The notes under the pieces: model-generated
The model's database searches: none
The model's input: only the letters and a program-made list of their open reading frames with translations
What the model was told of the DNA's origin: nothing
Program-made: the position numbers and the translations under genes
Shown here: in pieces, positions 11,886 to 30,603 of the stretch
Layout of the letters: each line of letters opens with the position of its first letter
Numbering within the stretch: position 1 is the stretch's first letter
From: a bacterium
Lineage (GTDB): Bacteria; Chloroflexota; Anaerolineae; Aggregatilineales; Phototrophicaceae
Direction of reading: 5' to 3'
Length of the DNA stretch: 32,000 bases
Assembly (NCBI GenBank): GCA_033762735.1
Contig: JANRLJ010000084.1
Coordinates: 61,158 to 93,157, forward strand

Positions 11886-11910
11886 GCGATTGCCTCTCGT
11901 ATGCGCCCGC

Positions 11911-13398
11911 TTAGAGCGTCAGAATTCCAGCCACCATCGGCGGCACGACCAGGAAGGAAATACCCGAAATGAACACCGTCAGCGCCAGATAGAACGCCAT
12001 CTTGACCCTGAAGCCGCCATCACACACGATAATGGCTGCCGCGCTGACCAGCGCCAGCAGCAGGATCATGCCTACGGTGATGGTGTGCAGAAATTGCAGA
12101 TCAGCGGCGGAAAACTCGGCCATGCCCAGGCTCATGTTGACCTGCCCGTTGGCGGCCTCCGTGTTCTGTGGCATCAGCGTGGCGACCAGCGCGGCGAAGT
12201 TGTTGATGATAGACAATACGAACACCATCAGTCCGGCGACCACGGCCTGCATGACGGTCGTCAGACCCGAAAATGTCCCGGCGGTCAGGCGGCGTTTGGC
12301 ACGGAGCTGAGTGGTTTTAGCGGCGAACAGCGAACACAGATAGCCCACGCGCTCCGGGTCACCACCGATTTTGACCGCGCCGTAGAAGATGTCGGTCACG
12401 GCGCTGATGAGCTTGCTGCCTGTGTCCTCCCCGAACTTGCGCCAGCACACCTCCGGCTCGACCAGCGCCTGCAAACGCTTGCTCAGGCGGTCGATGTCCG
12501 GTGCTAACGCCGGGAAGGAGGTTAAATCCATGCGGGTGAGCGCCTGCTTAAGCGTCGTCCCGGTCGAATTTGCCATACCGCCGACCGAACGCAGAAAGGT
12601 ACTGAACTCGGCATCGCGTTTAATGCGCTTCTTCTCGCTTGCCAGCGCGGCAATCCCGATGGGCAGCAGCAGCACCGCCACCCACATCAGCAGCCAACCC
12701 AGCGGCACACCCAGCAAATTCATCAGGGCGGCGCTGGCGAAGCATACCGGGATGAGCGTGCGAAACAACCGCATTGCCCGCTGCTGTTCAGGCGAGCCAT
12801 GAGATGGTTTGTTGGTCATTTTTTCACGCGGGGCGGAACGGTAAATAATCCAGGCCCCCATCACCGCCATCATGAAGCCCGTCATCACCAGACCGCCCAT
12901 GACCGTCACATCCATCGAATAAATCATGGAAGAGATCATCTGAATAATGACGATCAGCGCGACCGAGATCACAATCGAGGAAAAGGCATTCGACCACTGC
13001 TTCATCGCTTCCAGATCGCGCTCGTAGCGGTTTTCGTAGTCCTCGGCCTGTACCTCCGCCTCACGCGCCAAAAAATCCGCCAGCGGCTCGCCAGAGCGCA
13101 GCGCATCCGACAGGCGCAGCAGGAAGCTTTTCATGTTTTCTGATTTCGCCTTGCTCCCCACGCGGCGGCAGGCTTCGGGATAGTCATAGCGGAACTCATC
13201 CACCAGCGTGTTCACAGCAGCGAAATAGACCGCCGCGCCAGACGATGACTGTGCCGCGATCTGAAAAATCTTCCCCCGTGACAACCCGGCGGAGGCCATC
13301 GCGGAGAGATACGTCATCTGGTAGAACATATCGAAGGGCGAGACTGGCTTAAAGGAGTTTTTGTCTTCGCGCTTCGGCGAGGACGCCAAAGAGTTCAT
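11911..13398 (-). CDS. arlJ: Archaellum polytopic membrane platform protein ArlJ (FlaJ; T2SS-F/TadBC-like)
   Basis: 495 aa with many TM helices, the two-half architecture typical of FlaJ/TadBC, and a position directly after arlI. The start is uncertain. Start 13398 overlaps arlI by 50 nt. The alternative ATG at 13329 (MFYQMTYLSAMASAG) leaves a 19-nt gap. Confidence 0.8.
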   Translation of the reverse strand: MNSLASSPKREDKNSFKPVSPFDMFYQMTYLSAMASAGLSRGKIFQIAAQSSSGAAVYFAAVNTLVDEFRYDYPEACRRVGSKAKSENMKSFLLRLSDALRSGEPLADFLAREAEVQAEDYENRYERDLEAMKQWSNAFSSIVISVALIVIIQMISSMIYSMDVTVMGGLVMTGFMMAVMGAWIIYRSAPREKMTNKPSHGSPEQQRAMRLFRTLIPVCFASAALMNLLGVPLGWLLMWVAVLLLPIGIAALASEKKRIKRDAEFSTFLRSVGGMANSTGTTLKQALTRMDLTSFPALAPDIDRLSKRLQALVEPEVCWRKFGEDTGSKLISAVTDIFYGAVKIGGDPERVGYLCSLFAAKTTQLRAKRRLTAGTFSGLTTVMQAVVAGLMVFVLSIINNFAALVATLMPQNTEAANGQVNMSLGMAEFSAADLQFLHTITVGMILLLALVSAAAIIVCDGGFRVKMAFYLALTVFISGISFLVVPPMVAGILTL

Positions 13399-15043
13399 GA
13401 AAGTCCGTTACCCCTTTCTCTTTATGCAGCTTTTCCAGAATTTTGGCGCGGCGCTTCACCTCGTCGTAGATGTCCTTGCGACGATGCGGCGGGATCCCGC
13501 GCTTGATGGCGATGATCTGCTCCAGCAGGTAGCTGTTCATGTAACCGGGGAACTCAAACGTGTCGTTGGCCGGGTTCCAGCGGAAGGCCTCCAGGAACGA
13601 AAAGCTCTCCGTCAACGGGTCATAGCCGATGATTTCGTTGATGCTCAGCACACGACGCGCCGAACGGCCATCCGCCAGGCGCACGGCTGACTGAATCACC
13701 GCCAGGTTCAGATTGTCGATATAGGTCTTGGGGATGTTGATCGGATCGCCCGTGAGACGCTGGATGAGCTTTTCGACCGATGCCGCGTGAAAGGTGGACA
13801 TCACGCCGTGCCCGGTCTGCATTGCCTGGAACGCGACGACGGCTTCCATACTGCGGATTTCACCGACGATAATCATTTCAGGGCGCTGGCGCAGCGCGGC
13901 TTTGAGCAGTTCAAACATGCCTACGTCGCTGCCCTTCTTCTCTCCCCCGCCGTGCCGCGTGGATTCCTGCACCCAGTTCTTGTGCGGCACCTGCACTTCA
14001 GGCGTGTCCTCAATGGTCACGATTTTCGCATCAGGGCGGATAAAGGTGGTGATGGCGTTGAGCAGCGTGGTCTTGCCGGAAGCGGTCGCGCCCACCACAA
14101 AGCAGTTCATCCCGGCTTCCAGCATCAGCGAGAGATAGGCCGCCATCGTATAGTTGAGGCTGCCGAACTCGATCAGTTCGAGCACACTGGTTGGTGTGCC
14201 GGAAAACTTACGAATAGTGAAGTTGCTGCCTCGCTTGCTGATCTCCCGCCCATACACGATGTTGATACGCGAACCATCGGGCAGCACCGCATCCACCAGC
14301 GGATTGCGCACCGTCACCGGGCTTTTGATCCACTCCCCCAGCCACACGGCGAATTCGTCCACGTCGTCATAATCGACAAATTCAATGGACGACTGCACAC
14401 TCTTAAAAATCTTGTGTTCGATGAAGATATGGCCGACGCCGCTGCAACTGATGTCTTCGATATAGGGATCAAGCAGCAGCGGTTGCAGCACGCCCAGACC
14501 AATCTTGTCGCGCAGTACGCGATATCGAACCGCTTCAAGCTCACCCGGCGAGACATACACCAGCGGTTTGCGGAAGTTAATCGTCGCGTTTTTGTCCGTC
14601 GTGCAGATCGTATCCAGCAGATTAAGCAGCAGTGCCCGCTTTTCTTCCTTGTCTTCCACACGCCCGATTTGCTCAGCATAGATCACCAGCCGTTCCTCAA
14701 TCTGCGGCATCAGGTGGTCGATGTTGACGACCGAGGTCGGTTCAATCGGGATGTAATGATCGCGGGCGCCGGTAAAATCCGGGTAGATGTGGACGAACAG
14801 GCCTTCCTTGATCGGATAGATCAGGTTTTTCACGGGCAGATCGCTCAGGCTGCGCGCCACCTTCGGATAAAAGGCGGGTATGCCGATCTCGTCAATAGGA
14901 AGCCGCTGCACATAAGCGGCCAGGAAGGACGACTCTGCACAGGCCTTTTGCAGCGCTTCGGAAAGCTGGGGTTGCAGGCGTGCCCAGGCTTCACGGCTGG
15001 GCTGGAGGGCCTGACCATCAAACGGAAGTGTCGTTCTCGCCAT
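13349..15043 (-). CDS. arlI: Archaellum motor ATPase ArlI (FlaI; secretion ATPase superfamily)
   Basis: Walker A VVGATASGKTTLLNA, Asp box IVTIEDTPEV, Walker B RQRPEMIIVGEIR and His box GHGVMSTFHA. The N-terminal region DISCSGVGHIFIEH is typical of FlaI/VirB11-type ATPases. Confidence 0.9.
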   Translation of the reverse strand: MARTTLPFDGQALQPSREAWARLQPQLSEALQKACAESSFLAAYVQRLPIDEIGIPAFYPKVARSLSDLPVKNLIYPIKEGLFVHIYPDFTGARDHYIPIEPTSVVNIDHLMPQIEERLVIYAEQIGRVEDKEEKRALLLNLLDTICTTDKNATINFRKPLVYVSPGELEAVRYRVLRDKIGLGVLQPLLLDPYIEDISCSGVGHIFIEHKIFKSVQSSIEFVDYDDVDEFAVWLGEWIKSPVTVRNPLVDAVLPDGSRINIVYGREISKRGSNFTIRKFSGTPTSVLELIEFGSLNYTMAAYLSLMLEAGMNCFVVGATASGKTTLLNAITTFIRPDAKIVTIEDTPEVQVPHKNWVQESTRHGGGEKKGSDVGMFELLKAALRQRPEMIIVGEIRSMEAVVAFQAMQTGHGVMSTFHAASVEKLIQRLTGDPINIPKTYIDNLNLAVIQSAVRLADGRSARRVLSINEIIGYDPLTESFSFLEAFRWNPANDTFEFPGYMNSYLLEQIIAIKRGIPPHRRKDIYDEVKRRAKILEKLHKEKGVTDFHELFGVLAEARRQKLL

Positions 15044-15053
15044 AGGACTTTGC

Positions 15054-15764
15054 TTAACCTCGTGCCTTACTAATGGGGATCACACGCATCCCCCAGCCCG
15101 GTTCCACTTCAAAACCGACAATCGCGCCTGTCACGCTGCCCGCACCGCGCACCTTTGCCACTTCCAGCGTTTTGACGAGCCGCTGCCCATCCTGCTCTGA
15201 ACGCAGTTTTAAGTGCGCGTCACACATCGACCGCAGCGGCGCGATCAGTTCCTCGTCAAACGCCTTCGGATGCAGCGTGAGGATCACCGTCTGCCCGGTG
15301 GCGCAAAGCTGCTTGCACTGCTCGAAGAAGCTCAGGATTTGCCAGTCGGCGGATTTTTTCCCGGTCGCGGCGGTGAATGAGTCCACGATAATGACATCAC
15401 GATCCGGGTGCTGTTTAAGTGCATCGATGAGCGCGAACGGTGCTTTGTCTCCCAGCCGCGCCAGTGCCATGGGGTACACGCGCAGCTTGCGCAGCAGCAG
15501 AAAATCAAGCACATCCAGGTCGATGCTCTCCATCTGGCTCAGCAGGCTTTTGACCGTGTTCTCGCTGGTGAAGACGGCAGCGCTGAAGCCCTCCCGCAGC
15601 GCCCCGCTCAGGATTTGCTGGGAAAGGACAGACTTGCCTGCGCCGGAGGTGCCTTCGATCAGCGTCAGCGACCCGGCAGGCAGACCGCCGCCCATTTTGC
15701 TGTCCAGTTCGACGTTACCAGAGGAAATCGTCCGTTTTTTCGGACTATCAGGTGCGTTCTTCAT
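15054..15764 (-). CDS. arlH: KaiC/RecA-like ATP-binding protein ArlH (FlaH)
   Basis: 236 aa. Motifs VELDSKMGGGLPAGSLTLIEGTSGAGKSVLSQQ (Walker A) and DVIIVDSF (Walker B-like). It lies immediately upstream of arlI, as in archaeal arl operons. Confidence 0.8.
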   Translation of the reverse strand: MKNAPDSPKKRTISSGNVELDSKMGGGLPAGSLTLIEGTSGAGKSVLSQQILSGALREGFSAAVFTSENTVKSLLSQMESIDLDVLDFLLLRKLRVYPMALARLGDKAPFALIDALKQHPDRDVIIVDSFTAATGKKSADWQILSFFEQCKQLCATGQTVILTLHPKAFDEELIAPLRSMCDAHLKLRSEQDGQRLVKTLEVAKVRGAGSVTGAIVGFEVEPGWGMRVIPISKARG

Positions 15765-15788
15765 TGCGTCGGTCGCTTTCTTCGGCTG

Positions 15789-16925
15789 TCAGGGCATCGC
15801 CAGGTAGAACGTGAACGGGCCAATCGTCGCTTCGCCATCCGTGATGGTGAACTGGAAGCTGTCCAGGCCTGCCGCCAGACGGCTGTAGCCGACGGCGCCC
15901 GCGTCCAGATCAGCCTGGGTAAAGGTCGTCCCCGGCGTAAGCGTACCCAGGGTTGGCCCGCTGATGATGGTGTAGACCAGTTCGGCAGGCAGGTTATCCA
16001 CATCGGTTGCGGTCAGCGCCGCCGCCGGGATGCTCCCGCTGGCGCCTTCGGGCACAGTGATGATGGAATTGGTCGCCAGCACAGGCGCAGCGTTGGTCGT
16101 CATGATGGTAAAGGTATAGAGGCCGATCACGTCCTCGCCGTCGCTTACCTGGAACACGAAGCTGTCATTACCGTCGCCGGTGTGCGTGTATTCCAGCGCA
16201 TCCTCGTCGATCTGTGTCTGTGTGAACGTCGTCGGCAGGTTGAGTTCACCCTGTTCCGGCGGTGTCATCACGGTGAAAACCAGGTCTTCCGGCAGGTCAT
16301 CCAGATCAACGGCCTGCAAATGCGTAACGAGAATGTCAGCAGACGTGCGGCTTTCCAGCGTCAGCCCGGTATTGACCACCAGCACAGGCGGGACGTTGCG
16401 TATGGCCTGGACGGACACACCCGCGCCGTTGCCCGCAATCACCAGCGCGAGCAGGGTTTGACCATGCCCCACACCTGGCGCGACCTGAATTTGAATCACG
16501 ATTTCCTCGCCGGGATTGAGGATGCCGTTCTCAAACACTTCCGGCTGCGCTTTGGCCGCGTCCTGATAAATCCCGCTGACCTTCCAGGTATTGTCGAGCG
16601 CGCCGCCCCTATTGATGGGCACCCAGCGCACATGATATTCCGCGGCGTCCTGGGTATAGTACTGGACGATGATGTCCCACTGGTCGAAATTCACCAGTCG
16701 GTTTTCGCCCGTGTTGCGATAGGTCACCTCTGCCACCGTCCCACCGCCTGCGATGCGGGCGGCAACGGGCGTAAGGCTGGTGCGGCTTTGGTCATCAAGA
16801 CGGCTTTCCATCGTCTGCCATGCTTCCTGCACTTCGTTCTGAGCCTCGAAGAAGCGCGTCGTCAGCGTGAACGTCGCCAGCAGGAACAGGAGCAGAACAA
16901 CCAGACCAGACAGCACAGAGTCCAT
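15789..16925 (-). CDS. ArlF/ArlG-family protein (N-terminal TM plus beta-sandwich) with two C-terminal cadherin-like repeats
   Basis: N-terminus MDSVLSGLVVLLLFLLATFTL. The first 170 aa or so resemble FlaF/FlaG-type proteins. Residues about 177-376 are two units of about 95 aa sharing N-x-P/A-PVL...D-x-D-x-LP-x-x-LV-F/Y-T...TFTQ...D...DSF-x-F...DGE...IG...TF. Confidence 0.6.
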   Translation of the reverse strand: MDSVLSGLVVLLLFLLATFTLTTRFFEAQNEVQEAWQTMESRLDDQSRTSLTPVAARIAGGGTVAEVTYRNTGENRLVNFDQWDIIVQYYTQDAAEYHVRWVPINRGGALDNTWKVSGIYQDAAKAQPEVFENGILNPGEEIVIQIQVAPGVGHGQTLLALVIAGNGAGVSVQAIRNVPPVLVVNTGLTLESRTSADILVTHLQAVDLDDLPEDLVFTVMTPPEQGELNLPTTFTQTQIDEDALEYTHTGDGNDSFVFQVSDGEDVIGLYTFTIMTTNAAPVLATNSIITVPEGASGSIPAAALTATDVDNLPAELVYTIISGPTLGTLTPGTTFTQADLDAGAVGYSRLAAGLDSFQFTITDGEATIGPFTFYLAMP

Positions 16926-16928
16926 CGC

Positions 16929-17441
16929 TTACAGCCCCATAAAGGTTTCGTCTTCGACCCCGCTGGGAGTCACGACTTTGGCGAAGTAGCGCCCGCTGGT
17001 CAGGGGCAGCGAAAAACGGATGGTAATGCGCAGAGTGGCGGTCGGCGTCCATTCTGCTGCGTTTTCCACGGTCCATGTCCACGAAGGCAGGCTGCCGTTC
17101 GCAGCGCTTTCGTGCGGAATTCGCGCGAAATTGCCTTCCGGCCCAAAGAACACATCGAGCTGATCGACAGCGGTGATGCGGCTGTCGCCGATGTTCTTTA
17201 CCCATAAAAGGACATCAAACTGACCGTTGCCGTTGGTATCCTGCCACCAACCGGCGCTGTCCAGTTCACCCGTCGCGTGAATCAGGCGAATCTGCGTGCG
17301 CATCTGATCCTGGGTGCGCCCGGCCATGCTGGTGATGGCATCACCGCCCTCGACCACCGCCGGATAGGCAACGTTAAAAAGCATCACCGCCAGGATCATG
17401 CTGATGACAATGAGGAGCGCTGTGGTGATCGCTTTATCCAT
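16929..17441 (-). CDS. ArlF/ArlG-family protein (small; uncleaved archaellin-like N-terminal helix)
   Basis: I prefer ATG 17441 (MDKAITTALLIVISMILAVMLFNVAYPAV). It is preceded by ggaga and overlaps the upstream stop by 8 nt; the track start is 17483. The beta-rich remainder contains VLLWVKNIGDSRI. Synteny places it between the arlCDE-like gene and arlH. Confidence 0.6.
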   Translation of the reverse strand: MDKAITTALLIVISMILAVMLFNVAYPAVVEGGDAITSMAGRTQDQMRTQIRLIHATGELDSAGWWQDTNGNGQFDVLLWVKNIGDSRITAVDQLDVFFGPEGNFARIPHESAANGSLPSWTWTVENAAEWTPTATLRITIRFSLPLTSGRYFAKVVTPSGVEDETFMGL

Positions 17442-18234
17442 TGCGCTTTCTCCACTGGACACCGGCGCTGGCGTTGTGGACACCCGCGATCAACCGCAGC
17501 ACCATCTGGGAGCGCCCTTCAACCTTTTCCACTTCGGCAGTGGTGCGGGCAGGGGTTTTAGGAGTGGGCTTCTGTGGCGCGGGTGTGATCTGCACCGGAA
17601 CAGCGGCCCCTGACTTCTTCGCAGTTGGTTGTTCAGGGGCAGTCTTCGTCCTGGCGCTGACGACCGCCGTCTCGCGGCTGTCCCGCTCGGCAATCACTTC
17701 CTCATAAGTGGCAACCAGACGCAGAAGATCATCGCGCACCTTGCGGTTAAAGCGGCCTTCCTCGGCGTAGCGCCTGATAAGTTCACGTGTGCGCCTGGCA
17801 CCAATCCGCCCCACCTGTTCGCTCGCCCACCCTTCCAGCGCGGCCAGTGTCGTCCAATCGACTTCCTTCGAGGCAGGCGCAGCGCTTGATTTGCGAGCGG
17901 TTTTGGGCGCGGCAGGCGTGGGGGCAAGGCTGGTTTCCTCCTGCCAGCCTGTGCCGAGCTGGTCAACGCTCGTCACTTTTCTGACACTGGGCAGCGGTGC
18001 TTCGGGTGCGGGGTTGCTGGCCGCAGTCGCTTCCACTGGAGTGGTCGTGAAGGAGACGACGGACGGGCGATGCTGCGGAGCCGGATCGTCGGGATTGTCG
18101 CTGTTGCTCGTGCGCAGGGTGGGATGCGCACCGTTGAGCAGTTGTTCCTGAATATCGAGCAGGCTGGCTTGAATCTGCCCTTTCAGGATTTGGATTTCTT
18201 CTTCCAGTACCTTAACGCGCTGTTCGAGATCCAT
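17434..18234 (-). CDS. Coiled-coil protein, possibly ArlC/D/E-like archaellum accessory protein
   Basis: N-terminal coiled coil MDLEQRVKVLEEEIQILKGQIQASLLDIQEQL, then Pro/Ala/Thr-rich linkers. The segment VDWTTLAALEGWASEQVGRIGARRTRELIRRYAEEGRFNRKVRDDLLRL resembles, from memory, the FlaD/E-domain pattern (W..fL...vG..g....L.yY...G.i...v...L). It occupies the arlCDE/arlX position right after arlB. Coding status is more certain than the family call. Confidence 0.45.
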   Translation of the reverse strand: MDLEQRVKVLEEEIQILKGQIQASLLDIQEQLLNGAHPTLRTSNSDNPDDPAPQHRPSVVSFTTTPVEATAASNPAPEAPLPSVRKVTSVDQLGTGWQEETSLAPTPAAPKTARKSSAAPASKEVDWTTLAALEGWASEQVGRIGARRTRELIRRYAEEGRFNRKVRDDLLRLVATYEEVIAERDSRETAVVSARTKTAPEQPTAKKSGAAVPVQITPAPQKPTPKTPARTTAEVEKVEGRSQMVLRLIAGVHNASAGVQWRKRNG

Positions 18235-18329
18235 AACGCACCTGAGAGTGTTTCGCTTGTCGTACTGTCGGGAGATTGAAAGGTATTTTTGATGCGCTTT
18301 TGAAAATTAATTTTTTATAGTTTGAGGCC

Positions 18330-18358
18330 GGGGCGGCACTTTTTTGAAGAACCGCCCC
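18330..18358 (-). other. Stem-loop just downstream of the archaellin stop codon
   Basis: ggggcgg / ccgcccc 7-bp GC stem with a 15-nt loop, 37 nt after the arlB stop. No U tract follows on the minus strand, so I do not call it a canonical terminator. Confidence 0.3.
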
Positions 18359-18394
18359 TCCTTGCCAGACGAATTCGCTGTACAGACCGGGAGA

Positions 18395-18964
18395 TTAGAA
18401 TTCGTTGACCGCTTCAATCGCCGGGGGCGTGGTGCGGGCGAAGGTCAGAACCGCGCCCGTCGGGGGTTTCACTTCCAGCGTGAATTCGGTGTTCGGGCCG
18501 AGGTTGGCAGCGGCCAGCGGCACGGTGATTTCCACCAGTTCGCCTTCTTCCAGCAGATCGTCAGCATCCGCCGTGCCAGCAGCGCCATCGACATCCACGA
18601 TCCAGGTCGCAGTCCAGTTCAGCCCCGTCAGAATTTGCGTGTTGTCGCGATAGTCGATCACCACCACACGGTTGGCATCATTCATGTTGACCGGTTCGCC
18701 ACCTGCGACGAGCTGCAGCGAGAAGCGCACGTTGGTCACTTCGTTGGTCGCACCTTCGGCGAGGATGGAACCCTTGACCTGCATCGAGGACTGAACGCCT
18801 TCCAGACCAGCAGCAATCGCCTGTTCGCCGCGTTCCGTAGAGGCTGTACCAGCAGACAGGATGGTGAAGGCGAAGACCGACGCGACGACGACGAAAGCGA
18901 TGAGGATGATGGCGGTTTCCAGGGCAGTCTGACCACGCTGTTCTTTGTTGAAGTTGTTGAACAT
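18395..18964 (-). CDS. arlB: Archaellin (archaeal flagellin) ArlB with a class III signal peptide
   Basis: I prefer ATG 18964 (track start 19066). N-terminus [39 protein letters not shown] has a short basic leader ending in RG, followed by the hydrophobic helix. The body has archaellin-like features: [16 protein letters not shown]...[29 protein letters not shown]. Confidence 0.85.
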
Positions 18965-19612
18965 GATGTTTGCTTTTCCTTTTGGTATGTTGTTTGGCTT
19001 CGGATGGTTGATTGGTCTTGTATTGCTCAAGGGCTTCGGATACTTATGCTTATCAGACGTACTCAATGGTGCTAGGTCAAGTTGGTTGGCTCTATGCGAA
19101 GTCGTCTGTGTACTCCCTTCTTCATCGTGCAGTTTCCATGGAGAAATACCCGGCGGACAACGTTGTCAACCAGCAGTGACCGGGCTTCCCATGAAGGCGT
19201 TCGTTGGTGAGGAGAATTTCAAAGTATGTGGCAGAACTACGCAGGTCTAACGGTGATTCGGCTGGGCTGCGATGTAGAGTTCGTTGTGCCTGGTACTTGA
19301 ATACTGCTCTCCGTCATTGATTTCATCCTATTGCCAGAATTGAGATGTGTCAATAGAGCAACAATTAATTTTTCCGTCGTTAATTGTTTTTTCAGAAATT
19401 AGTCATCGACTTTTCCGACAAATGTCACATTCCTGCTTTAATTTGATGATTCTTTCTTGATAAAGGGCGAAAAATTGAGAAATTGTGTTCCTTAAATTCA
19501 ATAATTGACGGCTGCGGATGGCATTTTTACGCATGTATCACAATTCTAACGCACCAGATTCAAGCAGACAAAGCATTAAGGTTTTCTATTAGTTTCTTCA
19601 ATTGAAGGCCAT

Positions 19613-19641
19613 TTGCTTTTTGGCTCGATGCTCCCTATACT
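19613..19641 (+). promoter_or_regulatory. Candidate sigma70-type promoter for the glycosyltransferase gene
   Basis: TTGCTT (19613-19618), a 17-nt spacer, then TATACT (19636-19641), 40 nt upstream of ATG 19682. Confidence 0.35.
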
Positions 19642-19681
19642 GCGTTCAATCAGCAATGCATAGTATTAAGAAAAGATAACG

Positions 19682-20881
19682 ATGCGGATACTTTTATCGT
19701 TTATGGGCGGCAGCGGGCATTTTCTGCCGCTGGTTTCGATTGCCCATGCAGCACAGGACACCGGACATGAAGTAGCCTTTGTCAGTGGTGGGTCGATGCA
19801 ACCGACCGTCGAGACAATGGGCTTTTCGGTGGTGAATAACGCTGTTGAAAGGCCAGAAGCACAACCCCCTCAGCGCCTTTCCTTGCAAACGGTGAATGTA
19901 AAACGCGAGGAAGACGACCTGCGGGAGAAATTCGCCCGTCATGCTGCCCGTTCACGCGCCGCGGAAATGCTTGAGGTGTGTGCCAGATGGATGCCTGATG
20001 TCATCGTCTGCGATGAGGTCGATTTTGGCAGTATGATCGCCGGGGAAAAGCTCGGAATCCCTTATGCCAGCGTGGTCGTGATCGCATCGGGTTCGTTCAT
20101 TCGTCTGGAGGTGGTCGGTGAAGCGCTAAACGAGGTTCGAGCAGGATACCATCTTCCGCCCGATTCTGAGCTGAAGATGCTCTCGCGCGATCTCGTCCTG
20201 ACTCCTGTCCCACGCAGCTTTCGCGACCCGGCCTTTCCCCTGCCCCCGACCGCCCATCTCATCCGACCGGAGATGCCAGAGGCGCAACCATCAGCACTGT
20301 CGATCTCGTTTCCGGAGCCAGACCGCCCACTCGTCTATTTCACGCTGGGCACGATCTTCAATCTGGAGTCGGGCGATCTGTTCACCCGCGTTCTGGAAGG
20401 GCTGCGCGATCTGCCGATCAACGTTGTGATGACGGTCGGCCCGCACATCCAGCCAGCAGAATTCGGCGCACAGCCCGACCATATCCATATCGCACAGTAC
20501 ATCCCGCAGGCCAGCATCCTGCCACACTGTGCGGCGGTCATCTCGCACGGCGGTTCTGGCAGCGTGATCGCAGCGCTGGCGCATGGCCTGCCGATGGTGC
20601 TGCTGCCAATGGGGGCAGATCAGCCGCACAACGCCGCCCGGTGCGAAGCGCTTGGTGTCGCCCGTGTGCTGGATGTGGTGGCGGCAGCGCCAACCCTGAT
20701 TCGGGATGCGCTCAAGGCCGTCTTGAGTGAACCGTCCTACCGTGCCGCCGCCAAAGGCCTGCGCGATGAAATCGCCGCGATGCCGCATCCCTCATCCGCC
20801 GTGCCGCTGCTGGAACGTCTTGCGACAGACAAATCAGCGTTTCGTAGTATGAGACACACATGTCAAGTATACCGGACATGA
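19682..20881 (+). CDS. GT1-family (GT-B fold, MGT/UDP-glycosyltransferase-like) glycosyltransferase
   Basis: N-terminus MRILLSFMGGSGHFLPLVSIA. C-terminal nucleotide-sugar motif HGGSGSVIAALAHGLPMVLLPMGADQPHNA, typical of macrolide/sterol-type GT1 enzymes. Confidence 0.85.
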   Translation: MRILLSFMGGSGHFLPLVSIAHAAQDTGHEVAFVSGGSMQPTVETMGFSVVNNAVERPEAQPPQRLSLQTVNVKREEDDLREKFARHAARSRAAEMLEVCARWMPDVIVCDEVDFGSMIAGEKLGIPYASVVVIASGSFIRLEVVGEALNEVRAGYHLPPDSELKMLSRDLVLTPVPRSFRDPAFPLPPTAHLIRPEMPEAQPSALSISFPEPDRPLVYFTLGTIFNLESGDLFTRVLEGLRDLPINVVMTVGPHIQPAEFGAQPDHIHIAQYIPQASILPHCAAVISHGGSGSVIAALAHGLPMVLLPMGADQPHNAARCEALGVARVLDVVAAAPTLIRDALKAVLSEPSYRAAAKGLRDEIAAMPHPSSAVPLLERLATDKSAFRSMRHTCQVYRT

Positions 20882-20890: not shown

Positions 20891-20920
20891 AAAAAACCGC
20901 CAGCGGGTGTGCTGACGGTT
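20891..20920. repeat. Left copy of a perfect 30-bp direct repeat (terminator hairpin copy)
   Basis: aaaaaaccgccagcgggtgtgctgacggtt is identical base for base to 23047-23076. It contains the hairpin ccgccagc-gggtgt-gctgacgg. On the minus strand the hairpin is followed by T6. Confidence 0.9.
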
Positions 20921-20979
20921 CAATAAGCATTACAAGTTACTACGTTGCCCACCTTCAATGCTGCAACATATTTAAATTT

Positions 20980-21618
20980 CTAACGTATAAGAAGCTTGTT
21001 CTGCCTCCGTGCTTCACTTATCGCTGTTCGATTTGCTGTAAAAACTTTGATACCTCTAACTGTTACAAAATCAGAGTCATCAGTAATAATTGATGTTATT
21101 CCGCTTTGAAGCATAGCATCTGCCATAAGTAGATCATATACATCAAGTTGCGTTGATTTGATGAGGTTTAGAGAGTTGCCTATAGCTACATCTGTAACAA
21201 AAACTTCTAGTGACCGACTAGCATACTGTTCTATTTGCAGCCAAGCTAGTTCTATTTCTCCAACTACGTTTGCCCTCTCAGTTACATGGTTATGTCTAAA
21301 TTCTTTCATAGTTAGGTCTTGTGAAGATGACTTACGAAAAATATCATGTTCATTGCTTTCAATACGATTCCCTATTTCAGAAAGCGAAAGTCCACATTTA
21401 AAAATTTCAGCATTTACGCTTAGTGCTGATTTCACGTAATTTGGGTAGGTTGTCGTTTGATAAGGACGTGGAGCACGGCTACTGCTTCCCAAGTTTGACC
21501 TTGTATAAGTCATCCAATACCATACGTTTGAGTCGACAAGAAACTTATCACTATTATGAGGTGTATCTGTCCCTATATCAATTACATCAGCATTGACGAT
21601 AACAGATAAACCTGGCAT
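20980..21618 (-). CDS. PIN-like nuclease domain protein
   Basis: Acidic residues are spaced as in PIN domains: FLVDSNVW (Asp near residue 29), SLSEIGNRIE, VYDLLMADAML (Asp near residue 162) and SIITDDSDF (Asp near residue 180). Its start is 7 nt after the upstream stop. Confidence 0.55.
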   Translation of the reverse strand: MPGLSVIVNADVIDIGTDTPHNSDKFLVDSNVWYWMTYTRSNLGSSSRAPRPYQTTTYPNYVKSALSVNAEIFKCGLSLSEIGNRIESNEHDIFRKSSSQDLTMKEFRHNHVTERANVVGEIELAWLQIEQYASRSLEVFVTDVAIGNSLNLIKSTQLDVYDLLMADAMLQSGITSIITDDSDFVTVRGIKVFTANRTAISEARRQNKLLIR

Positions 21619-21625
21619 AAATCAA

Positions 21626-21988
21626 TCACTCCTGCGTTTCTTTAGCAAGCACTTCATCAATTGCTTGACTTACTTCATTATTGGAATAGTAAGCTTTAGC
21701 ATTTTCGATCACACGTCTGAGTACAGCAAGTCCAACTGGTGTCATCTTTGTTCGATCAACAATTAAATAGCGATTTAAATCATCAGCTGATATGTCTTTA
21801 AGTAATTGACCTATTGCTGCATTCATAAATGGAGACGCGAAAATACGCACTCCAGAGAAGTCCAACTCTACTGTATCTTTTACACTAATTTTTGGATAAA
21901 TTAAATTGTACAATTTCTGACCGTCATCAAGTGTAATGCAATTCTCACCGACGAGTTGGATCACATGTATGATAGTCTTTGGGGACAT
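21626..21988 (-). CDS. STAS-like domain protein (DUF4325-like)
   Basis: TVELDFSGVRIFASPFMNAAIGQLL matches the lDF.gV....ssF pattern I associate with DUF4325/STAS-like partners of GHKL ATPases. 120 aa. Confidence 0.6.
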   Translation of the reverse strand: MSPKTIIHVIQLVGENCITLDDGQKLYNLIYPKISVKDTVELDFSGVRIFASPFMNAAIGQLLKDISADDLNRYLIVDRTKMTPVGLAVLRRVIENAKAYYSNNEVSQAIDEVLAKETQE

Positions 21989-22012
21989 AATTTGGTTTCT
22001 CCCTAGAAAACA

Positions 22013-22918
22013 TTAGAATAGTGGGCTATCGTCTGATTGCTTTAAAACTTCCTCTAATGAGTAATGGTGTTGATCGCACTTTAGGGTCACTTGAATAACA
22101 GTTCCACCAAAAGTTTTTTGACGATCAATTATCTGTTCGCCAGACCGGTCTACTTTAATATATCCGTTTTCACTATATATTTCTAGCTTTCCGTTGTTCT
22201 GCTGGATAAATTGTTTCAACTGTTTCAAGCCAAGTCCTCTACTAATTACTCCCTTTTTAGTAGTGTTACCAGGTTGAAATGCCCACCTAAGAGCCTCAGA
22301 GGCTTTGATATTAGGTTTATTGAGGAACGTTCGAACATTGTGAGGTATACCAACGCCAAAATCTACTAAAGTGATATCCAAATCTCTATTGTTAGGGAAA
22401 TGTTGTCCACAACTAGTTACTCCAACAGGAGAGGAAGCATGGTCAAAAACATTTATGTATACCTCTAATATAGTCGAAACAATTACATCTTTAAGTAGAG
22501 GATCGAGATCGATTCGAAGTTCATTTAGCCACAGTTCTCTAAGATAAAACGCAAAGTCATTAGTATCTATAGTTGTATCGATTCTAAATGGAACAGCTGT
22601 ATCCTTTATTACTCGATTATTACTACCAATTTTAAAAGCATTTAGAAAACCATTTTTATCTATATGTTGCCGTACTTGGGAAGACATACCTTCAAGAAGA
22701 TAATAAACTTGGTTCCCTTTGTTTTGGGCTAACGTGGTCAAACCACCAATGAATGCAATTGCATTTTGTGCTAGAAAATGACAGTTATTAAAATCAAACA
22801 CTATATCATAAGAAGATGTACGAACTGTGTGAGACATATCAAAAAGTCGATCAAAGTCGTTTGGGTAGTCATTTAAACGACCGTGAACGGGAATTACTGT
22901 GTTTTGAGATGTATTCAT
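22013..22918 (-). CDS. RsbW/SpoIIAB-like GHKL (HATPase_c) ATPase/kinase with an N-terminal STAS-like region
   Basis: N box LEVYINVFDHAS, G1 box LVDFGVGIP and G2 box RGLGLKQLKQF. The N-terminal 100 aa or so (IVFDFNNCHFLAQNAIAFIGGLTTLAQNKGNQVYYLLEGMSSQVRQHIDKNGFLNAF) look STAS-like. I chose ATG 22918 because the track TTG at 22939 lies inside the predicted -10 box. Confidence 0.7.
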   Translation of the reverse strand: MNTSQNTVIPVHGRLNDYPNDFDRLFDMSHTVRTSSYDIVFDFNNCHFLAQNAIAFIGGLTTLAQNKGNQVYYLLEGMSSQVRQHIDKNGFLNAFKIGSNNRVIKDTAVPFRIDTTIDTNDFAFYLRELWLNELRIDLDPLLKDVIVSTILEVYINVFDHASSPVGVTSCGQHFPNNRDLDITLVDFGVGIPHNVRTFLNKPNIKASEALRWAFQPGNTTKKGVISRGLGLKQLKQFIQQNNGKLEIYSENGYIKVDRSGEQIIDRQKTFGGTVIQVTLKCDQHHYSLEEVLKQSDDSPLF

Positions 22919-22938
22919 TCGTTTTACCTTTCTCAACA

Positions 22939-22967
22939 ATTATAGAACTTATTTTCTAAAATTGCAA
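22939..22967 (-). promoter_or_regulatory. Near-consensus sigma70-type promoter of the islet operon
   Basis: Read on the minus strand: TTGCAA (22967-22962), a 17-nt spacer, then TATAAT (22944-22939). Next come gaaagg (SD) and ATG 22918. Confidence 0.55.
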
Positions 22968-23045
22968 GAACGAGTTACGTTTTTACTGATAAAAGTATAC
23001 ACAATTATGACTGCTGTAGACGAGTTAATCACTTAAAGATTGAAT

Positions 23046-23079
23046 AAAAAAACCGCCAGCGGGTGTGCTGACGGTTTTT
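23046..23079. terminator. Bidirectional intrinsic terminator (lon terminator); includes the right copy of the 30-bp repeat (23047-23076)
   Basis: A7, then hairpin ccgccagc-gggtgt-gctgacgg (7 of 8 pairs), then T5. It lies 26 nt downstream of the lon stop on the minus strand. Confidence 0.7.
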
Positions 23080-23104
23080 CGATTCAATCTGACTGATTCA
23101 GGCA

Positions 23105-25540
<2,436 letters not shown>

Positions 25541-25865
25541 TCAGTTGCTCCTCGTTACGGTAAAAGGGATACCACGTTTGACAGTGCTATCCCGCTTGAT
25601 TTCAAGGATAGTTCATGCCTGTAGGAACCATATCAGTTGAACGTCAGCGCGGTATTAGAAAAGCCCCGCCCGAACGGGTGGGTGTAAAAGAGGGAGCAAC
25701 AAGTGATGAGTAACGAGTCGAAAGTACCGAGTGGTGAGTGCTGAGTGTGTTGTATCTCTGAGTTCTCCGCGCCTCTGCGGTTCAAGCTTTTTCTTTTTCC
25801 CCTCAGTTGTCCGATTCGCAAATTTGTGCTACGGTGAAAGGGTTTAGCCTGCGAGGAAATGCCCG

Positions 25866-27811: not shown

Positions 27812-28936
27812 ATGGGACTGGATGATTTGCGTTCATGGGTTCAACAGCGGCTCGGCGGGCTGCCTGCGGGCAGCGTTGTCCCGCTGATGCTTGCGCCGGG
27901 GCTGGCGCTGCTGGGGGTGTTCGTGCTGTTCCCGGTAGGGAAAGCGGTCGCGCTGGCGGCGTGGATTCTGCTGCTGCTCGGTACGCTGGTGCTGTGGCTG
28001 GAACATTCGGTAAAGCCGCGCTCTGCCTCTCCCCTCTCCACCCAGCAGATGATGACGCTGGAAGAAATCGAAGACCTGTCCACGCGCATCCACGTCACGG
28101 CGGATGGGGTGGTACGCACCGCACAGGCCATCAATGAAGTGACGGCGCAGCAGTCCACCGCCGCGCACGAACAGGCCGAAGTCATCCACATGACCAACGA
28201 GATGATGGACGAGTTCGTGGAGATGACCAGCAAGGTCAGCGATCAGGTACGCATGATGACGCAGACGGCGCAGCAGGTGGCCGAAATCTCCGAAGATGGG
28301 CAGGTCGCTATTCAGCAGGCGATTCAGGGCATGGCGCAGATTCGGCGGCAGGTATCGGCGATTGCAACCACCATCACCCGGCTGGCACAGCTCACCCGCC
28401 GCATTGACGAGATTATCACGTCTGTGAGCGAGGTCGCCACGCAGTCGAACCTGCTGGCGCTGAATGCCTCCATCGAAGCTGCCCGCGCAGGCACACAGGG
28501 ACGCGGCTTCGCGGTGGTGGCTGATGAAGTGCGCTCACTGGCACAGCAGTCCAGCGGGGCATCGCGCCAGGTGCGGCAAATTCTGGCAGAGATCCAGAGC
28601 GCGGTGAAGGAGACGATTCAGGCCATCGAGATCGGGATGCAGGGCGTGGAATCGGGGCTGAATATGACTCAGCAGGCCGATCACGTCATGCAGCAGTTGG
28701 TGGAGAGCGTGTCGTCCTCCAATCGGGCGGTGCGGGCGATTTACGACATTATCCGCCAGCAGGCCGATGGGCTGGATGGCATCGCGATTCACATGGAGCG
28801 CATCAGCCGCATCAACCAGCAGAATCTCACCAGCACACGCCTGGTGGAAACCGTGACGACCAATCTCAACCGCCTGGCCGACGAGTTGCAGCAGTCGCTC
28901 CAGTTGGGTCAGGAAGTCGGGACGCTCGTCAAATGA
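27812..28936 (+). CDS. Methyl-accepting chemotaxis protein (short; TM hairpin, no obvious sensor domain)
   Basis: Highly conserved MCP signalling hairpin [41 protein letters not shown]. The two N-terminal hydrophobic helices are joined by a very short loop. Confidence 0.9.
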
Positions 28937-29586
28937 CAGTTTTCACAGGAAAGACTTTAACTTTCCCCCAAAAACTGATTTTTCCCATAACCTGGATCAT
29001 CATTACGGTTGGCCTGGTTTTGGCCGTGAAGTGGGTTTTCACATTCTGGGTATCCTTCCATATCACGGTAGTCGTCGTCATCGTGCTGTTTGTCGCAACG
29101 ACTGTATACCGTCCCTGGAAAAGCTATACGAAAAAATCGACCTATCTCATCCTGGTATTGTTTCTTTCAGTCACGCCGCCTGCACTTGCTTTCGCTGGCG
29201 AATCCGCCATCGAACGTGCGGTGTGTCTGCTGCATGGAGTGAGCAGTTTTCACCACTTCATCACAACGCCTGTCAATCAAAGCGTAAGCGTATGTGGTTA
29301 CATAGACGGATGCAGTTCTGCTTACTTTGGAGAGGAGCAGCATGTCTGGGAAGTGTGTCGATTTGTCGATGTCACCAACCCTGACCAATCCGTGTTGGTT
29401 TATACCGTTGACATCACGATTAATATAGATAACCAATTTGTTTTCACATCGTTAACCGTTTATCCCAAAGGTACGTTGCTGGCAGGGCGAGGAAAGCTGG
29501 TTGGGTCATTAAATTGGGGAATCTGCACCGTTGATGCTTTCTGTCATGAAGAAACACTGCCCATCGCGGCAATCGTGCTGAATTAG
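28933..29586 (+). CDS. Hypothetical membrane protein with a Cys-containing C-terminal domain
   Basis: Its ATG overlaps the MCP stop (ATGA at 28933-28936). There are about three N-terminal TM helices. G+C is visibly lower than in the neighbours. No motif recognised. Confidence 0.5.
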
Positions 29587-29660: not shown

Positions 29661-29966
29661 CTACCGCCCCCGCAGCAGCCGCAGCGGGAACAGCAGAATA
29701 CGCTTCCACAGCGGCATCGGGTCGTCTTCGCCGCGCACCCAGACGGTTTTCACCAGCCACTTTTTCTCGTCCGTCTCGTAGTGGGCCACGACGTGCACCG
29801 GGCGCCGCTGAATCGTCTTGATGAATTTGGTGTCGCCGTCGGCTTCTTTCTCCCGTGCATCCGGCGCCTGCACTGCACTGGCGATCATCGCCTGCGAGAT
29901 GCGCCGCAGCCGCATTCGTTCGAGCGCGTGGTCGGTGAAGATCAGGTTTTTGTAGGTTCGGCTCAT
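29661..29966 (-). CDS. DUF4258-like small protein (toxin-like fold)
   Basis: I prefer ATG 29966 (MSRTYKNLIFTDHALERMRLRRIS), because the track ORF to 30173 would overlap rfbC. The F/Y-x-x-HALERM-x-x-R pattern is what I associate with DUF4258. Confidence 0.55.
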   Translation of the reverse strand: MSRTYKNLIFTDHALERMRLRRISQAMIASAVQAPDAREKEADGDTKFIKTIQRRPVHVVAHYETDEKKWLVKTVWVRGEDDPMPLWKRILLFPLRLLRGR

Positions 29967-30003
29967 GATGGTATCGTTCGTGCGTGTTTTTAAGAGGACG
30001 GTA

Positions 30004-30026
30004 GGGGCGACTCGGCGAGTCGCCCT
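30004..30026. repeat. Perfect GC-rich palindromic hairpin (REP-like element or terminator stem) downstream of rfbC
   Basis: gggcgactc-ggc-gagtcgccc: 9-bp perfect stem with a 3-nt loop, extendable by a closing G-U pair. No U tract on either strand. It is the only copy in this window. Confidence 0.5.
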
Positions 30027-30036
30027 TACAAGTCGC

Positions 30037-30603
30037 CTATCTGGGTAAATGATTAGGCGCGATGGCGCTGAGCGGCGGATTGGCGAGATCACGGGGGGAG
30101 AGCTTCGCCTCAGCTTCGTGAATACCCCAGTCAAGGCCGATCTGCGGGTCGTTCCAGGCGATTCCAAACTCATCCTTGCCGCCGTCGTAGTAGTTGTTCA
30201 CCAGGTACATCAGGGTGCAGTCGGTCAGCGCGGCGAAACCATGTGCGACTCCCACCGGGATAAACAGGCCGACGTTGTTGCCCTCGCCGATTTCGAGCGT
30301 GGACGCCGCGAGATACGTCGGTGAGTTCGGACGCAGATCGACCAGACCAGCGCGTACCCGTCCCTGGGTCACGTACCAGTAATCCACCTGGTGATGATGA
30401 TAATGCAGCCCGCGCACCACCCCGGCGCGGCTGTCTGAGCGGTTCGTCTGGATTTTCGTCCAATCGACTTCCGGGAACCACTCGCGCCGGAAGGTTTCCA
30501 TAAAACGCCCGCGTTCGTCCTCGAAGACGCGAATTTCAGCAATAAAGACCCCCTGGATCGTTTCCAGTGGACGGACGGGAGCAGCGGTGTTGACCTGTGC
30601 CAT
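30037..30603 (-). CDS. rfbC: dTDP-4-dehydrorhamnose 3,5-epimerase
   Basis: Cupin-fold RmlC motifs: FEDERGRFMETFR, VRGLHYHHHQVDYWYV, GVAHGFAAL and GIAWNDP. Confidence 0.9.
   Translation of the reverse strand: MAQVNTAAPVRPLETIQGVFIAEIRVFEDERGRFMETFRREWFPEVDWTKIQTNRSDSRAGVVRGLHYHHHQVDYWYVTQGRVRAGLVDLRPNSPTYLAASTLEIGEGNNVGLFIPVGVAHGFAALTDCTLMYLVNNYYDGGKDEFGIAWNDPQIGLDWGIHEAEAKLSPRDLANPPLSAIAPNHLPR

Follow-up and report, generated by a model that had tools for sequence, protein, structure and literature searches.

A low-G+C vapKSC cassette between two copies of a host terminator, with a footprint that fits insertion with target duplication

The window analysed here, a 32-kb stretch of DNA, contains an islet between two convergent host genes, an EryCIII/UDPGT-like glycosyltransferase gene and the lon protease gene, whose best relatives are in Chloroflexota/Aggregatilineales metagenome-assembled genomes at 69–77% identity (Table 1). 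The islet is bounded by the direct repeat AAAAAACCGCCAGCGGGTGTGCTGACGGTT, which occurs exactly twice in the window, on the + strand and with 30 of 30 positions identical, just as an earlier note on this DNA had claimed. No further copy with up to three mismatches was found in the window, none appeared in 100 shuffles, and a search of JGI metagenome contigs for the 30-mer, suggested in the same note, gave no exact match; the uniqueness of the repeat refers to the window rather than to the whole source genome. The repeat (57% G+C) contains the hairpin CCGCCAGC-GGGTGT-GCTGACGG preceded by A6 and lies between the two convergent genes, which agrees with its earlier description as the hairpin of their bidirectional terminator. 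The accompanying claim that only the right copy keeps a T tract holds for the + strand but not for the - strand, on which the A6 run of the repeat gives each copy the T6-7 of a complete terminator. On that strand lon is terminated by the right copy and the islet operon by the left, where a terminator-like site runs from 20921 to 20894.

Table 1. Positions of the islet, its genes and its flanking features in the window
Feature	Position	Strand	Evidence or remark
Host glycosyltransferase, left flank	19682..20881	+	Pfam EryCIII-like_C 2.8e-27, UDPGT 9e-19; GC3 0.64; NCBI MDX1992613.1
Left 30-bp repeat copy	20891..20920		Exact match; - strand intrinsic terminator of the vapKSC operon (stem plus TTTTTTGTT)
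Inserted foreign DNA	20921..23046		2,126 bp, 35.9% G+C
vapC, predicted PIN-domain toxin nuclease, 212 aa	20980..21618	-	PDB 9z7o_C; weak Pfam PIN match
vapS, predicted STAS-like (DUF4325) antitoxin, 120 aa	21626..21988	-	Pfam DUF4325 4.4e-14; PDB 9z7o_A
vapK, predicted STAS + GHKL kinase, 301 aa	22013..22918	-	ATG at 22918; weak Pfam HATPase_c, GHKL and STAS matches
Promoter-like site TTGCAA-17-TATAAT, in islet upstream of vapK	22939..22967	-	10/12 consensus; consensus match only
AGATTGAAT, right edge of islet	23037..23045		9/9 in-register complement of host ATTCAATCT (23082-23090)
Right 30-bp repeat copy	23047..23076		Exact match; lon terminator on - strand; + strand T tract kept
Host lon protease, right flank	23105..25540	-	Pfam Lon_C 1.4e-90, LON_substr_bdg, AAA

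Between the repeat copies the G+C content is 0.359, compared with 0.590 in the rest of the window, bearing out the reported drop of roughly 20–25 points; other windows of 2,126 bp averaged 0.586 (sd 0.025, minimum 0.512). The GC3 values of the three islet genes (0.25–0.29) are likewise far from those of the glycosyltransferase gene and of lon (0.81). Neither the islet nor the 27 window ORFs scanned with Pfam contained an integrase or transposase, confirming an earlier observation. The two ends of the islet do not form an inverted repeat, and a tRNA target and a known RNA family within the islet were checked and not supported. Together, composition and repeat support the view that foreign DNA was inserted recently and that its insertion duplicated the glycosyltransferase/lon terminator, and we infer that the 30-mer was single-copy before it. 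The local effect is a rewiring of termination, in which one copy of the lon terminator now serves the operon and the glycosyltransferase gene has been left with a + strand terminator that lacks a T tract. To this extent the original proposal of an insertion with terminator duplication stands; its attL/attR-style, site-specific reading fares less well, since the repeats flanking related cassettes at three other loci (L086, L089 and L098) are unrelated to this one.

Judged by homology, the cargo, which the earlier note did not identify, is a complete vapKSC operon (VapK, VapS and VapC). The vapKSC family was described as a three-gene toxin–antitoxin and anti-phage system (Chambers, Rani, Min, Villa and Corbett, EMBO J 2026, PMC13373217; PDB 9z7o). 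In this family, VapS combines a STAS domain, in which one Ser/Thr (S48) is absolutely conserved, with a short C-terminal inhibitory region, VapC is a PIN nuclease of ~200 aa with a catalytic Asp (D28), and VapK joins an N-terminal STAS-like domain to a GHKL kinase domain and uses a conserved aromatic residue, F54 in Escherichia sp. E4736, for single-stranded DNA binding; movement of the operon is not discussed (PMC13373217). The three islet genes follow the order K-S-C, also found in 75 loci, with gaps of 24 and 7 bp. VapC aligned with 'Escherichia VapC' (PDB 9z7o_C) at E=2.8e-42, residues 5–210 against 4–202, with an identity of roughly 45% as judged by eye from the alignment, and its Asp29 in KFLVD aligns with the catalytic D28, also in KFLVD. 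VapS matched 'Escherichia VapS' (PDB 9z7o_A, E=2.4e-20) over residues 9–119, the C-terminal region included, and its Ser52 in FASPF aligns with chain residue S66, which would be the phospho-acceptor S48 assuming an 18-residue tag offset (134-residue chain versus 116 native). The vapK product is 100% identical to NCBI MDX1992616.1 (301 aa); a longer ORF starting with TTG at 22939 is probably not used. Its Pfam matches to STAS (residues 43–106, E 0.02) and HATPase_c (156–287, E 5e-4) both lie below the curated cut-off, and the N-box and G-box motifs of GHKL kinases (E152/N156/H160, D186-G-x-G-I-P and G228-x-G230) are invariant in 29 homologues. VapK is 41% identical to E. coli VapK over its full length, and an invariant Phe, F48 in C-x-F-L-x-x-N-A here and position 49 in the E. 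coli homologue, is likely the equivalent of the single-stranded DNA-binding F54, a residue numbered as in E4736. PADLOC-DB 2023 gave no match to the cargo apart from a weak one to DrmA, as expected for a family published only in 2026.

By homology to the published family model, the STAS protein VapS would bind the PIN nuclease VapC and block it. Single-stranded DNA arising from DNA damage or infection would activate VapK, and the active kinase would phosphorylate VapS, here at Ser52, freeing VapC and arresting the cell. The operon shares with the published system its genes and their order, the full-length alignment of VapC and VapS, the catalytic Asp and phospho-acceptor Ser, and the STAS and GHKL domains of VapK. 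It differs in being a distant member, carried by a Chloroflexota metagenome-assembled genome, and in standing alone between housekeeping genes, whereas other members lie at a prophage end or beside restriction-modification genes; in several loci vapKSC is directly downstream of type I restriction-modification genes.

Flanking direct repeats of 15–31 bp were found at four of ~40 independent metagenome vapKSC loci (only ~10%), namely in the present window (30 bp) and at L086 (31 bp), L089 (15(+5) bp) and L098 (15 bp). Repeats longer than 14 bp were seen in none of 946–1,064 shifted windows and in none of 3,000 cross-locus permutations. The four repeats have no mutual relation, are host-derived and cover the start or stop codon of a host gene or a terminator: the L086 repeat is the last 12 codons of a LacI-family gene, that of L089 covers the region around a thioesterase start codon, and that of L098 the stop codon of a Usp gene. 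At L086 the second copy continues into sequence that plausibly encodes the C-terminus which the LacI-family protein had originally, and the insert has no base beyond the vapC stop codon. Among cassettes in different contexts, homology starts at most ~75 bp from the vapK start codon (at L089, 15 bp inside the repeat) and stops by the vapC stop. Cassette homology is thus confined to the three genes and a short vapK leader, which leaves no conserved ends or terminal inverted repeats; at the repeat-flanked loci we found neither inverted ends, conserved end sequences nor a nearby recombinase, and all 10 flanking ORFs scanned were housekeeping genes. Other solitary cassettes showed no flanking repeat of at least 12 bp, as at L081, which sits tightly between two genes with a G+C of 0.46 versus 0.60. 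Two further candidates were discarded. At L133, the 69-bp, 87%-identical (60/69) repeat comes from the tails of two copies of a small repeated ORF, the second of which lies in an extra 1.1-kb segment that is missing from sister contigs, and at L142 the repeat is an 11-mer with its first copy inside the vapK start region. Long target duplication is one vapKSC route among several.

We consider it probable that the vapKSC cassette was joined illegitimately at a staggered break and that fill-in duplicated the 30-bp host terminator. Low-GC foreign DNA, linear or circular and with little beyond the three genes and a short leader, would have entered the chromosome by joining that is not site-specific, at a staggered break across the terminator common to the glycosyltransferase gene and lon, and fill-in of the two single-stranded ends would have doubled 30 bp of host sequence. 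As the duplicated segment is the lon terminator, lon would retain its terminator and the incoming operon would acquire one; the position at a gene boundary would follow from the persistence of only those insertions that spare neighbouring genes. By analogy, the footprint fits variable-length target duplication at insertion, a class known for restriction-modification cassettes and one whose mechanism, to our knowledge, has never been demonstrated experimentally. Such 'insertion with long target duplication' was described for low-GC restriction-modification inserts with repeats across start and stop sites (Nobusato et al., Gene 2000; Furuta, Abe and Kobayashi, NAR 2010, PMC2853133). The vapKSC cassettes resemble them as small defence cassettes without a mobility gene and with a G+C below that of the host, flanked by long, variable, host-derived repeats over the start or stop of a gene or over an intergenic signal and by intact neighbours. 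They differ in cargo, which is a kinase-controlled toxin–antitoxin system, and in repeat length: the 15–31 bp of the vapKSC repeats is mostly at or below the working cut-off of >30 bp used in 2010 (30 bp here, 31 at L086), and the published cases are mostly 46 to about 400 bp (PMC2853133). That cut-off served to keep att cores out and does not mark a change of mechanism. Those authors also suggested that DNA breaks made by the restriction enzyme itself drive insertion (PMC2853133), an idea without an obvious vapKSC counterpart because VapC is thought to cut RNA.

Both vapKSC and insertion with long target duplication were thus already known, and the present cassette is a further example, adding a Chloroflexota case to a recently published defence family. 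For the spread of small defence systems off a phage, plasmid or transposon, long target duplication is the only pattern described, and it has been tied to restriction-modification. Here a different type of defence has the same footprint in four unrelated lineages; if this footprint holds up, it would represent a general entry mode of foreign cassettes into chromosomes and not a property of restriction enzymes. The four loci supply concrete junctions from which empty-site and circle-junction sequences are predicted.

At the right junction, the repeat copy lies inside a 54-bp near-palindrome (23037–23090), in whose 9-bp outer stem the islet-side AGATTGAAT pairs with the host-side ATTCAATCT. The junction folds into a 23-pair interrupted stem (24-nt arms; dG -31.7, z -8.2), and by our own calculation the in-register complementarity at nine of nine positions would arise by chance with a probability of ~4e-6. 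The nonamer is either the ancestral outer stem or a snap-back templated patch from junction formation. In the latter case, a single-stranded terminator end may have folded back and self-primed, copying the nonamer from the host flank, which requires one mis-incorporated base. An ancestral 54-bp palindrome would separate the insert from the right repeat copy by 10 bases of host sequence and is therefore at odds with a simple target duplication. Targeting of hairpins was rejected, as only one of the four reconstructed empty sites, the present one, folds significantly (z -3.5 to -3.8; the other three gave -1.8/-0.8, -1.0/-2.3 and +1.2/+0.9). The hairpin at the present site is probably incidental.

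An unlikely but still arguable alternative is site-specific, Campbell-type integration, in which an islet circle bearing one 30-mer recombined with the chromosomal 30-mer to give attL and attR. This would need either a tyrosine or serine recombinase provided in trans, the islet then being CIME-like and not autonomous, or RecA-dependent recombination, for which the 30 bp of identity is close to the minimum length. Perfect direct repeats of about 30 bp are within the range of att cores, the L086 repeat over the 3' end of a host gene is in a classic att position, and CIMEs and integrase islands share with the cassettes direct repeats at both ends, one over a host gene end, and the lack of a recombinase of their own. 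However, a site-specific system would reuse a related core at each site, and the repeats of the four loci, 15 to 31 bp long, share no sequence, which counts against attL/attR. The cassettes also lack conserved arms or ends, with the L086 insert flush with the vapC stop, and the scans of window ORFs and of ORFs flanking the other cassettes turned up no recombinase. Moreover, a circle already bearing the host 30-mer presupposes an earlier duplicating insertion, so that this model leaves the origin of the duplication unexplained.

We give little credence to a dedicated, unrecognised mechanism that would move vapKSC cassettes standing alone, and perhaps minimal cassettes of other defence systems too, with staggers of ~15 or 30 bp at gene boundaries and with no specific ends. 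Candidates may include a Cas1- or casposase-like integrase, a structure-specific nuclease, or target-primed reverse transcription of the operon transcript, and the cassette's own single-stranded DNA-sensing kinase and PIN nuclease may contribute; the patch at the right edge of the islet would then be the footprint of a single-stranded intermediate.

Transposition in trans by a transposase that makes long, variable duplications, of the IS1630 or IS1634 type, appears improbable. The cassette itself would need to carry no transposase, and the 15–31 bp duplications overlap the 19–26 bp reported for IS1630 in a figure legend (Figure 1 of PMC2853133), so that long, variable target duplications are common to both. 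Unlike that group, the cassettes have no terminal inverted repeats at the islet or the other cassette ends, no transposase and no shared end sequences; L086 leaves no room for a right end, and the hosts belong to unrelated lineages. Integron cassettes, which often hold toxin–antitoxin or defence genes, resemble the islet in being small, recombinase-free and bounded by hairpin-forming repeats. An attC site was nevertheless rejected, as the 30-mer, read from the sequence, has no RYYYAAC or GTTRRRY boxes and no intI was found among the window ORFs scanned. The hairpin is that of a 30-bp host terminator and not attC, coding sequence is duplicated at the other loci, and the vapKSC cassette has its own promoter-like site.

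It is highly improbable that the repeat came first, with identical terminators behind the glycosyltransferase gene and lon, or a dispersed REP-like 30-mer, and with the islet landing between the copies. 'Chance insertions between repeated sequences' form a class listed by Furuta et al. (PMC2853133), and the rejected L133 locus, with its repeat from a repeated small ORF, is such a case. Yet the presence of only two copies in the 32-kb window and the absence of the exact 30-mer from the JGI contigs speak against a dispersed element, identical tandem terminators placed exactly around a foreign insert would be unparsimonious, and the other three loci duplicate unique coding sequence rather than repeats. 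Least probable, and unlikely also as a de Bruijn-graph artefact at k=31, is the insertion of a foreign fragment of 2.1 kb, or of a small circle, into the contig during assembly by way of a 30-mer common to both: the source is a metagenome-assembled genome, the G+C jump is abrupt, 30 equals k-1 and the repeat lengths of 30 and 31 are near a common k-mer size, but a low-GC foreign molecule would have to hold the exact 57%-G+C host 30-mer, final k values in current assemblers are well above 31, the deposited annotation gives the genes for the glycosyltransferase, VapC, VapS and VapK consecutive accessions on one 102-kb contig, the same architecture occurs with repeats of 15–20 bp in independent JGI assemblies where the second copy sensibly completes a host ORF, and L089, L090 and L092 agree across three different samples.

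For the preferred reading, a joining at a staggered break, an empty site would hold one copy of the 30-mer; none was recovered in the collections searched, because the host has no close relative in any of them. A scan for Lon with one genome per species gave a best match of 77% identity, and none of 80 related lon loci had the glycosyltransferase gene, the PolA-like gene or the islet genes near lon. The search for glycosyltransferase homologues returned the protein itself and a next best match at 64% identity, and exact-protein look-ups with the glycosyltransferase, Lon, VapS and P0001 matched no record. As to possible vectors, neither 72,556 plasmids nor 50,697 phage genomes contained a tblastn match to VapC, and only four complete vapKSC operons were found in 2.9 million viral contigs. 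In the E. coli pan-genome, two of 5,426 complete genomes have vapKSC. There, a P2-like prophage beside mntR carries it at its end as cargo, and no repeat flanks it; the case bears on vectors and not on the repeat. In a related prophage, two other genes occupy the position of vapKSC.

The 30-mer AAAAAACCGCCAGCGGGTGTGCTGACGGTT occurs exactly twice in the window, at 20891-20920 and 23047-23076, with no third copy there at up to three mismatches and no 30-mer repeat in 100 shuffles, confirming the perfect direct repeat described in the earlier note. The 2,126-bp islet between the copies has a G+C of 0.359 compared with 0.590 in the remainder of the window, where the lowest value for any window of this length is 0.512; the reported compositional drop is thus evident, and GC3 is 0.25-0.29 in the three islet genes, 0.64 in the glycosyltransferase gene and 0.81 in lon. 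The 30-mer contains the hairpin CCGCCAGC/GCTGACGG and is flanked by the stop codons of the glycosyltransferase and lon genes, which converge on it, as anticipated from the proposal that the repeat is their shared terminator hairpin. The further claim that only the right copy keeps its T tract holds for the + strand, and transcripts from the glycosyltransferase gene may run on antisense into the islet. On the - strand each copy forms a complete terminator, since the repeat includes the A6 run; there, the right copy terminates lon and the left copy terminates the islet operon. The scanned ORFs of the window include no integrase or transposase, again in agreement with the earlier note, and the observation it reported is real.

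Coordinates of genes and sites in the window
Feature	Position	Strand	Remark
Glycosyltransferase	19682-20881	+	Host gene left of the islet, convergent with lon
lon	23105-25540	-	Host gene right of the islet
Promoter-like site TTGCAA-17-TATAAT	22967->22939	-	Within the islet, upstream of vapK
A24 prepilin peptidase	10723-11358		Filament cluster
T2SSF/FlaJ-like protein	11911-13398		Filament cluster
T2SSE/FlaI-like ATPase	13349-15043		Filament cluster
KaiC/FlaH-like ATPase	15054-15764		Filament cluster
Archaeal-type flagellins (two)	16929-17483, 18395-19066		Filament cluster

All three islet genes lie on the - strand. The 212-aa product matched 'Escherichia VapC' (PDB 9z7o, chain C) over its full length (E=2.8e-42), with Asp29 (KFLVD) aligned to the catalytic D28 of that toxin. 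The 120-aa product belongs to the STAS-like DUF4325 proteins (Pfam 4.4e-14), and its alignment with 'Escherichia VapS' (9z7o, chain A; E=2.4e-20) extends through the C-terminal region and places Ser52 (FASPF) at the phospho-acceptor S48 if the crystallised chain has an 18-residue tag offset. STAS and GHKL matches of the 301-aa product were weak; the GHKL N-box and G-boxes of VapK are invariant in 29 homologues, and the islet VapK is 41% identical to that of E. coli. The cargo is therefore almost certainly vapKSC, a known and recently described defence system (Chambers et al., EMBO J 2026, PMC13373217). In the model of Chambers et al., VapS inhibits the PIN toxin VapC until VapK phosphorylates VapS and VapC is freed; single-stranded DNA was proposed as the VapK activator, and protection was about 2 logs against one phage (PMC13373217). 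Matelska et al. 2017 had earlier drawn attention to a subgroup of PIN proteins whose genes are coupled to DUF4325 genes (PMC5499597).

vapKSC loci number 289 in IMG; the comparison set comprised 75 with K-S-C order, of which about 40 independent loci had enough flank for repeat comparison. At each locus the analysis took the longest exact direct repeat bracketing the operon, its copies lying upstream of vapK and downstream of vapC, respectively. Four of the roughly 40 were outliers: locus L086 (31 bp), the window (30 bp), L089 (15 bp, 19/20 when extended) and L098 (15 bp). The identifiers are Ga0163147 for L086, Ga0209591, Ga0209181 and Ga0163144 for L089/L090/L092, and Ga0335395 and Ga0209591 for L098/L107. 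Controls peaked at 13 for exact-repeat shifted windows (n=946) and at 14 for cross-locus permutations (n=3,000), and ungapped-alignment controls (n=1,064) reached a maximum score of 14. The four repeats have no common sequence, and all of them are host sequence at a gene boundary: the terminator common to glycosyltransferase and lon in the window, the final 12 codons of a LacI-family gene at L086, the beginning of a thioesterase gene at L089, from its ribosome-binding site through the start codon into the first codons, and the closing codons of a Usp gene at L098, stop codon included. The second L086 copy abuts the vapC stop codon and continues into the apparent original C-terminus of the LacI-family gene, expected to read ...GSSGAKIKTS*. 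All 10 flanking ORFs scanned at the repeat-flanked loci are housekeeping genes. In three of the four cases the cassette is much poorer in G+C than its host, with differences of 0.14-0.22 in the window, L086 and L089; at L098 the difference is 0.06. Cassettes from different contexts share homology only in the three genes plus a short leader, beginning no more than about 75 bp from the vapK start codon and not passing the vapC stop (at L089, it starts 15 bp inside the repeat); the cassettes therefore lack conserved ends, and no inverted terminal repeats were seen at them. The L086 vapK (5986-6903) has an in-frame stop (…RSHL*SIGF…), reflecting either a pseudogene or a sequencing error. At another locus, L133, vapKSC is flanked by a 69-bp direct repeat that is 87% identical (60/69; 1981-2049 and 4308-4376), whose copies are both tails of a small ORF (…KRDKYFQKEIEVLR…). 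An extra 1.1-kb segment with a phosphoribosyltransferase gene, missing from the sister contigs L109, L131, L122 and L136, contains the second of these copies.

We consider it reasonably likely that the islet arrived by non-site-specific insertion with a 30-bp target duplication, in which fill-in at a staggered break would duplicate 30 bp of host target. The predicted empty site would read ...CATGAAACGGCAAC-AAAAAACCGCCAGCGGGTGTGCTGACGGTT-TTTCGATTCAATCT..., and excision through the repeats would give a circle junction ...AAGATTGAATA-[30-mer]-CAATAAGCATTAC.... The vapKSC cases conform to the pattern of 'insertion with long target duplication' described for restriction-modification cassettes, where restriction-enzyme double-strand breakage was suggested as involved and the mechanism was left open (Nobusato et al. 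2000; Furuta, Abe and Kobayashi 2010, PMC2853133). They differ from those cassettes in that the vapKSC repeats are shorter, at or below the 30-bp working cut-off (PMC2853133), and the cargo nuclease is thought to act on RNA. The attL/attR-style site-specific integration favoured by the earlier note is a minority alternative: it predicts a related core sequence at each site, a nearby recombinase and retained arm sequences, whereas the repeats at the four loci are unrelated and neither a recombinase among the scanned ORFs nor arms were seen. A Campbell-type crossover of a circle already carrying the host 30-mer merely pushes the origin of the duplication back to the first insertion. With no reused core, recombinase or arms and a regressing Campbell model, fill-in target duplication is therefore favoured. 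The long-target-duplication class is already described and mechanistically unexplained; extending it to a defence system other than restriction-modification, found in four lineages, is a new but incremental step.

Of the four reconstructed empty sites, that of the window is the only one much more stably folded than its shuffled counterparts (z -3.5 to -3.8); the L086 fold is marginal, and the L089 and L098 sites are unstructured. The terminator hairpin is thus probably incidental to insertion, and the factor common to the four sites is gene-boundary position, which is explained by selection against disruptive insertions with no need for structure-specific targeting. The right 30-mer copy lies within a 54-bp near-palindrome (23037-23090) that folds into a 23-pair interrupted stem with 24-nt arms (dG -31.7 kcal/mol, z -8.2). 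Its outer 9 bp, islet-side AGATTGAAT and host-flank ATTCAATCT, pair exactly symmetrically about the hairpin centre, with a chance of 9/9 in-register pairing of about 4e-6 by our own calculation. We lean towards AGATTGAAT being a snap-back templated patch: a single-stranded lon-side end would fold on its own terminator, extend along its own flank and then join. Such a patch agrees with a single-stranded, fill-in intermediate, although it requires one wrong base (T opposite C). Inspection of the left junction revealed no matching patch. An ancestral 54-bp palindrome is less favoured, since it puts ten host bases between the insert and the right copy where simple target duplication predicts none.

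Only 2 of 5,426 complete E. coli genomes carry vapKSC, which lies there between mntR and P2-like prophage tail genes. In a related prophage of strain EcPF15, beside ybjL, two unrelated small genes occupy the vapKSC position, suggesting that this prophage end is a variable cargo slot (loci L166-L173, about 6516-8810, and L180). At L084 (1-5907) and L142 (3274-5977), vapKSC directly follows type I restriction-modification genes, starting 3-95 bp from the hsdS stop codon and echoing the restriction-modification association reported for capK-capS. The system was not found in the collections of plasmids and phage genomes and occurs in few viral contigs, and the flanking repeat is absent at some solitary cassettes, such as L081. 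Given the prophage, hsdS-adjacent and repeat-less loci, vapKSC reaches its sites by several routes, of which long target duplication is one.

The window consists of ordinary chromosomal DNA from a Chloroflexota (Aggregatilineales-like) organism; besides lon, it carries an archaellum-like/type IV filament cluster and genes for a family-A DNA polymerase, a chemoreceptor and sugar metabolism. NCBI records place the glycosyltransferase (MDX1992613.1) and VapK (MDX1992616.1) on one 102,233-bp contig, the accession spacing being consistent with gene order in the window; exact look-ups of four window proteins returned no record. Lon proteins of the closest genomes are 69-77% identical, with no synteny around lon in those genomes, the 30-mer was absent from JGI metagenome contigs, and after the glycosyltransferase itself the best match to it in 5.8 billion proteins has 64% identity. 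The host has no close relative in the collections searched.

The filament cluster, in a bacterial genome, spans 8930-19066 and also encodes a PilN-like and a cadherin-like protein. The 615-bp intergenic region at 19067-19681, between the divergent archaellin and glycosyltransferase genes, is the window's second-lowest G+C stretch (as low as 0.37); it has no Rfam match and is probably a divergent promoter region. The window's only tRNA gene, tRNA-Leu (anticodon taa, 4577-4659), is 16 kb from the islet and unconnected to it. A weak Rfam match to the archaeal snoRNA sR3 in the lon/polymerase intergenic region (25699-25763; 22 bits, gathering score 41, E 0.02) is most likely due to chance. A toxin-like DUF4258 ORF (29661-30173) adjoins both a lower-G+C stretch (0.48; dip at 29001-29500) and a 217-aa ORF (28933-29586) that matches nothing in Pfam, and this region may be another small acquired module.
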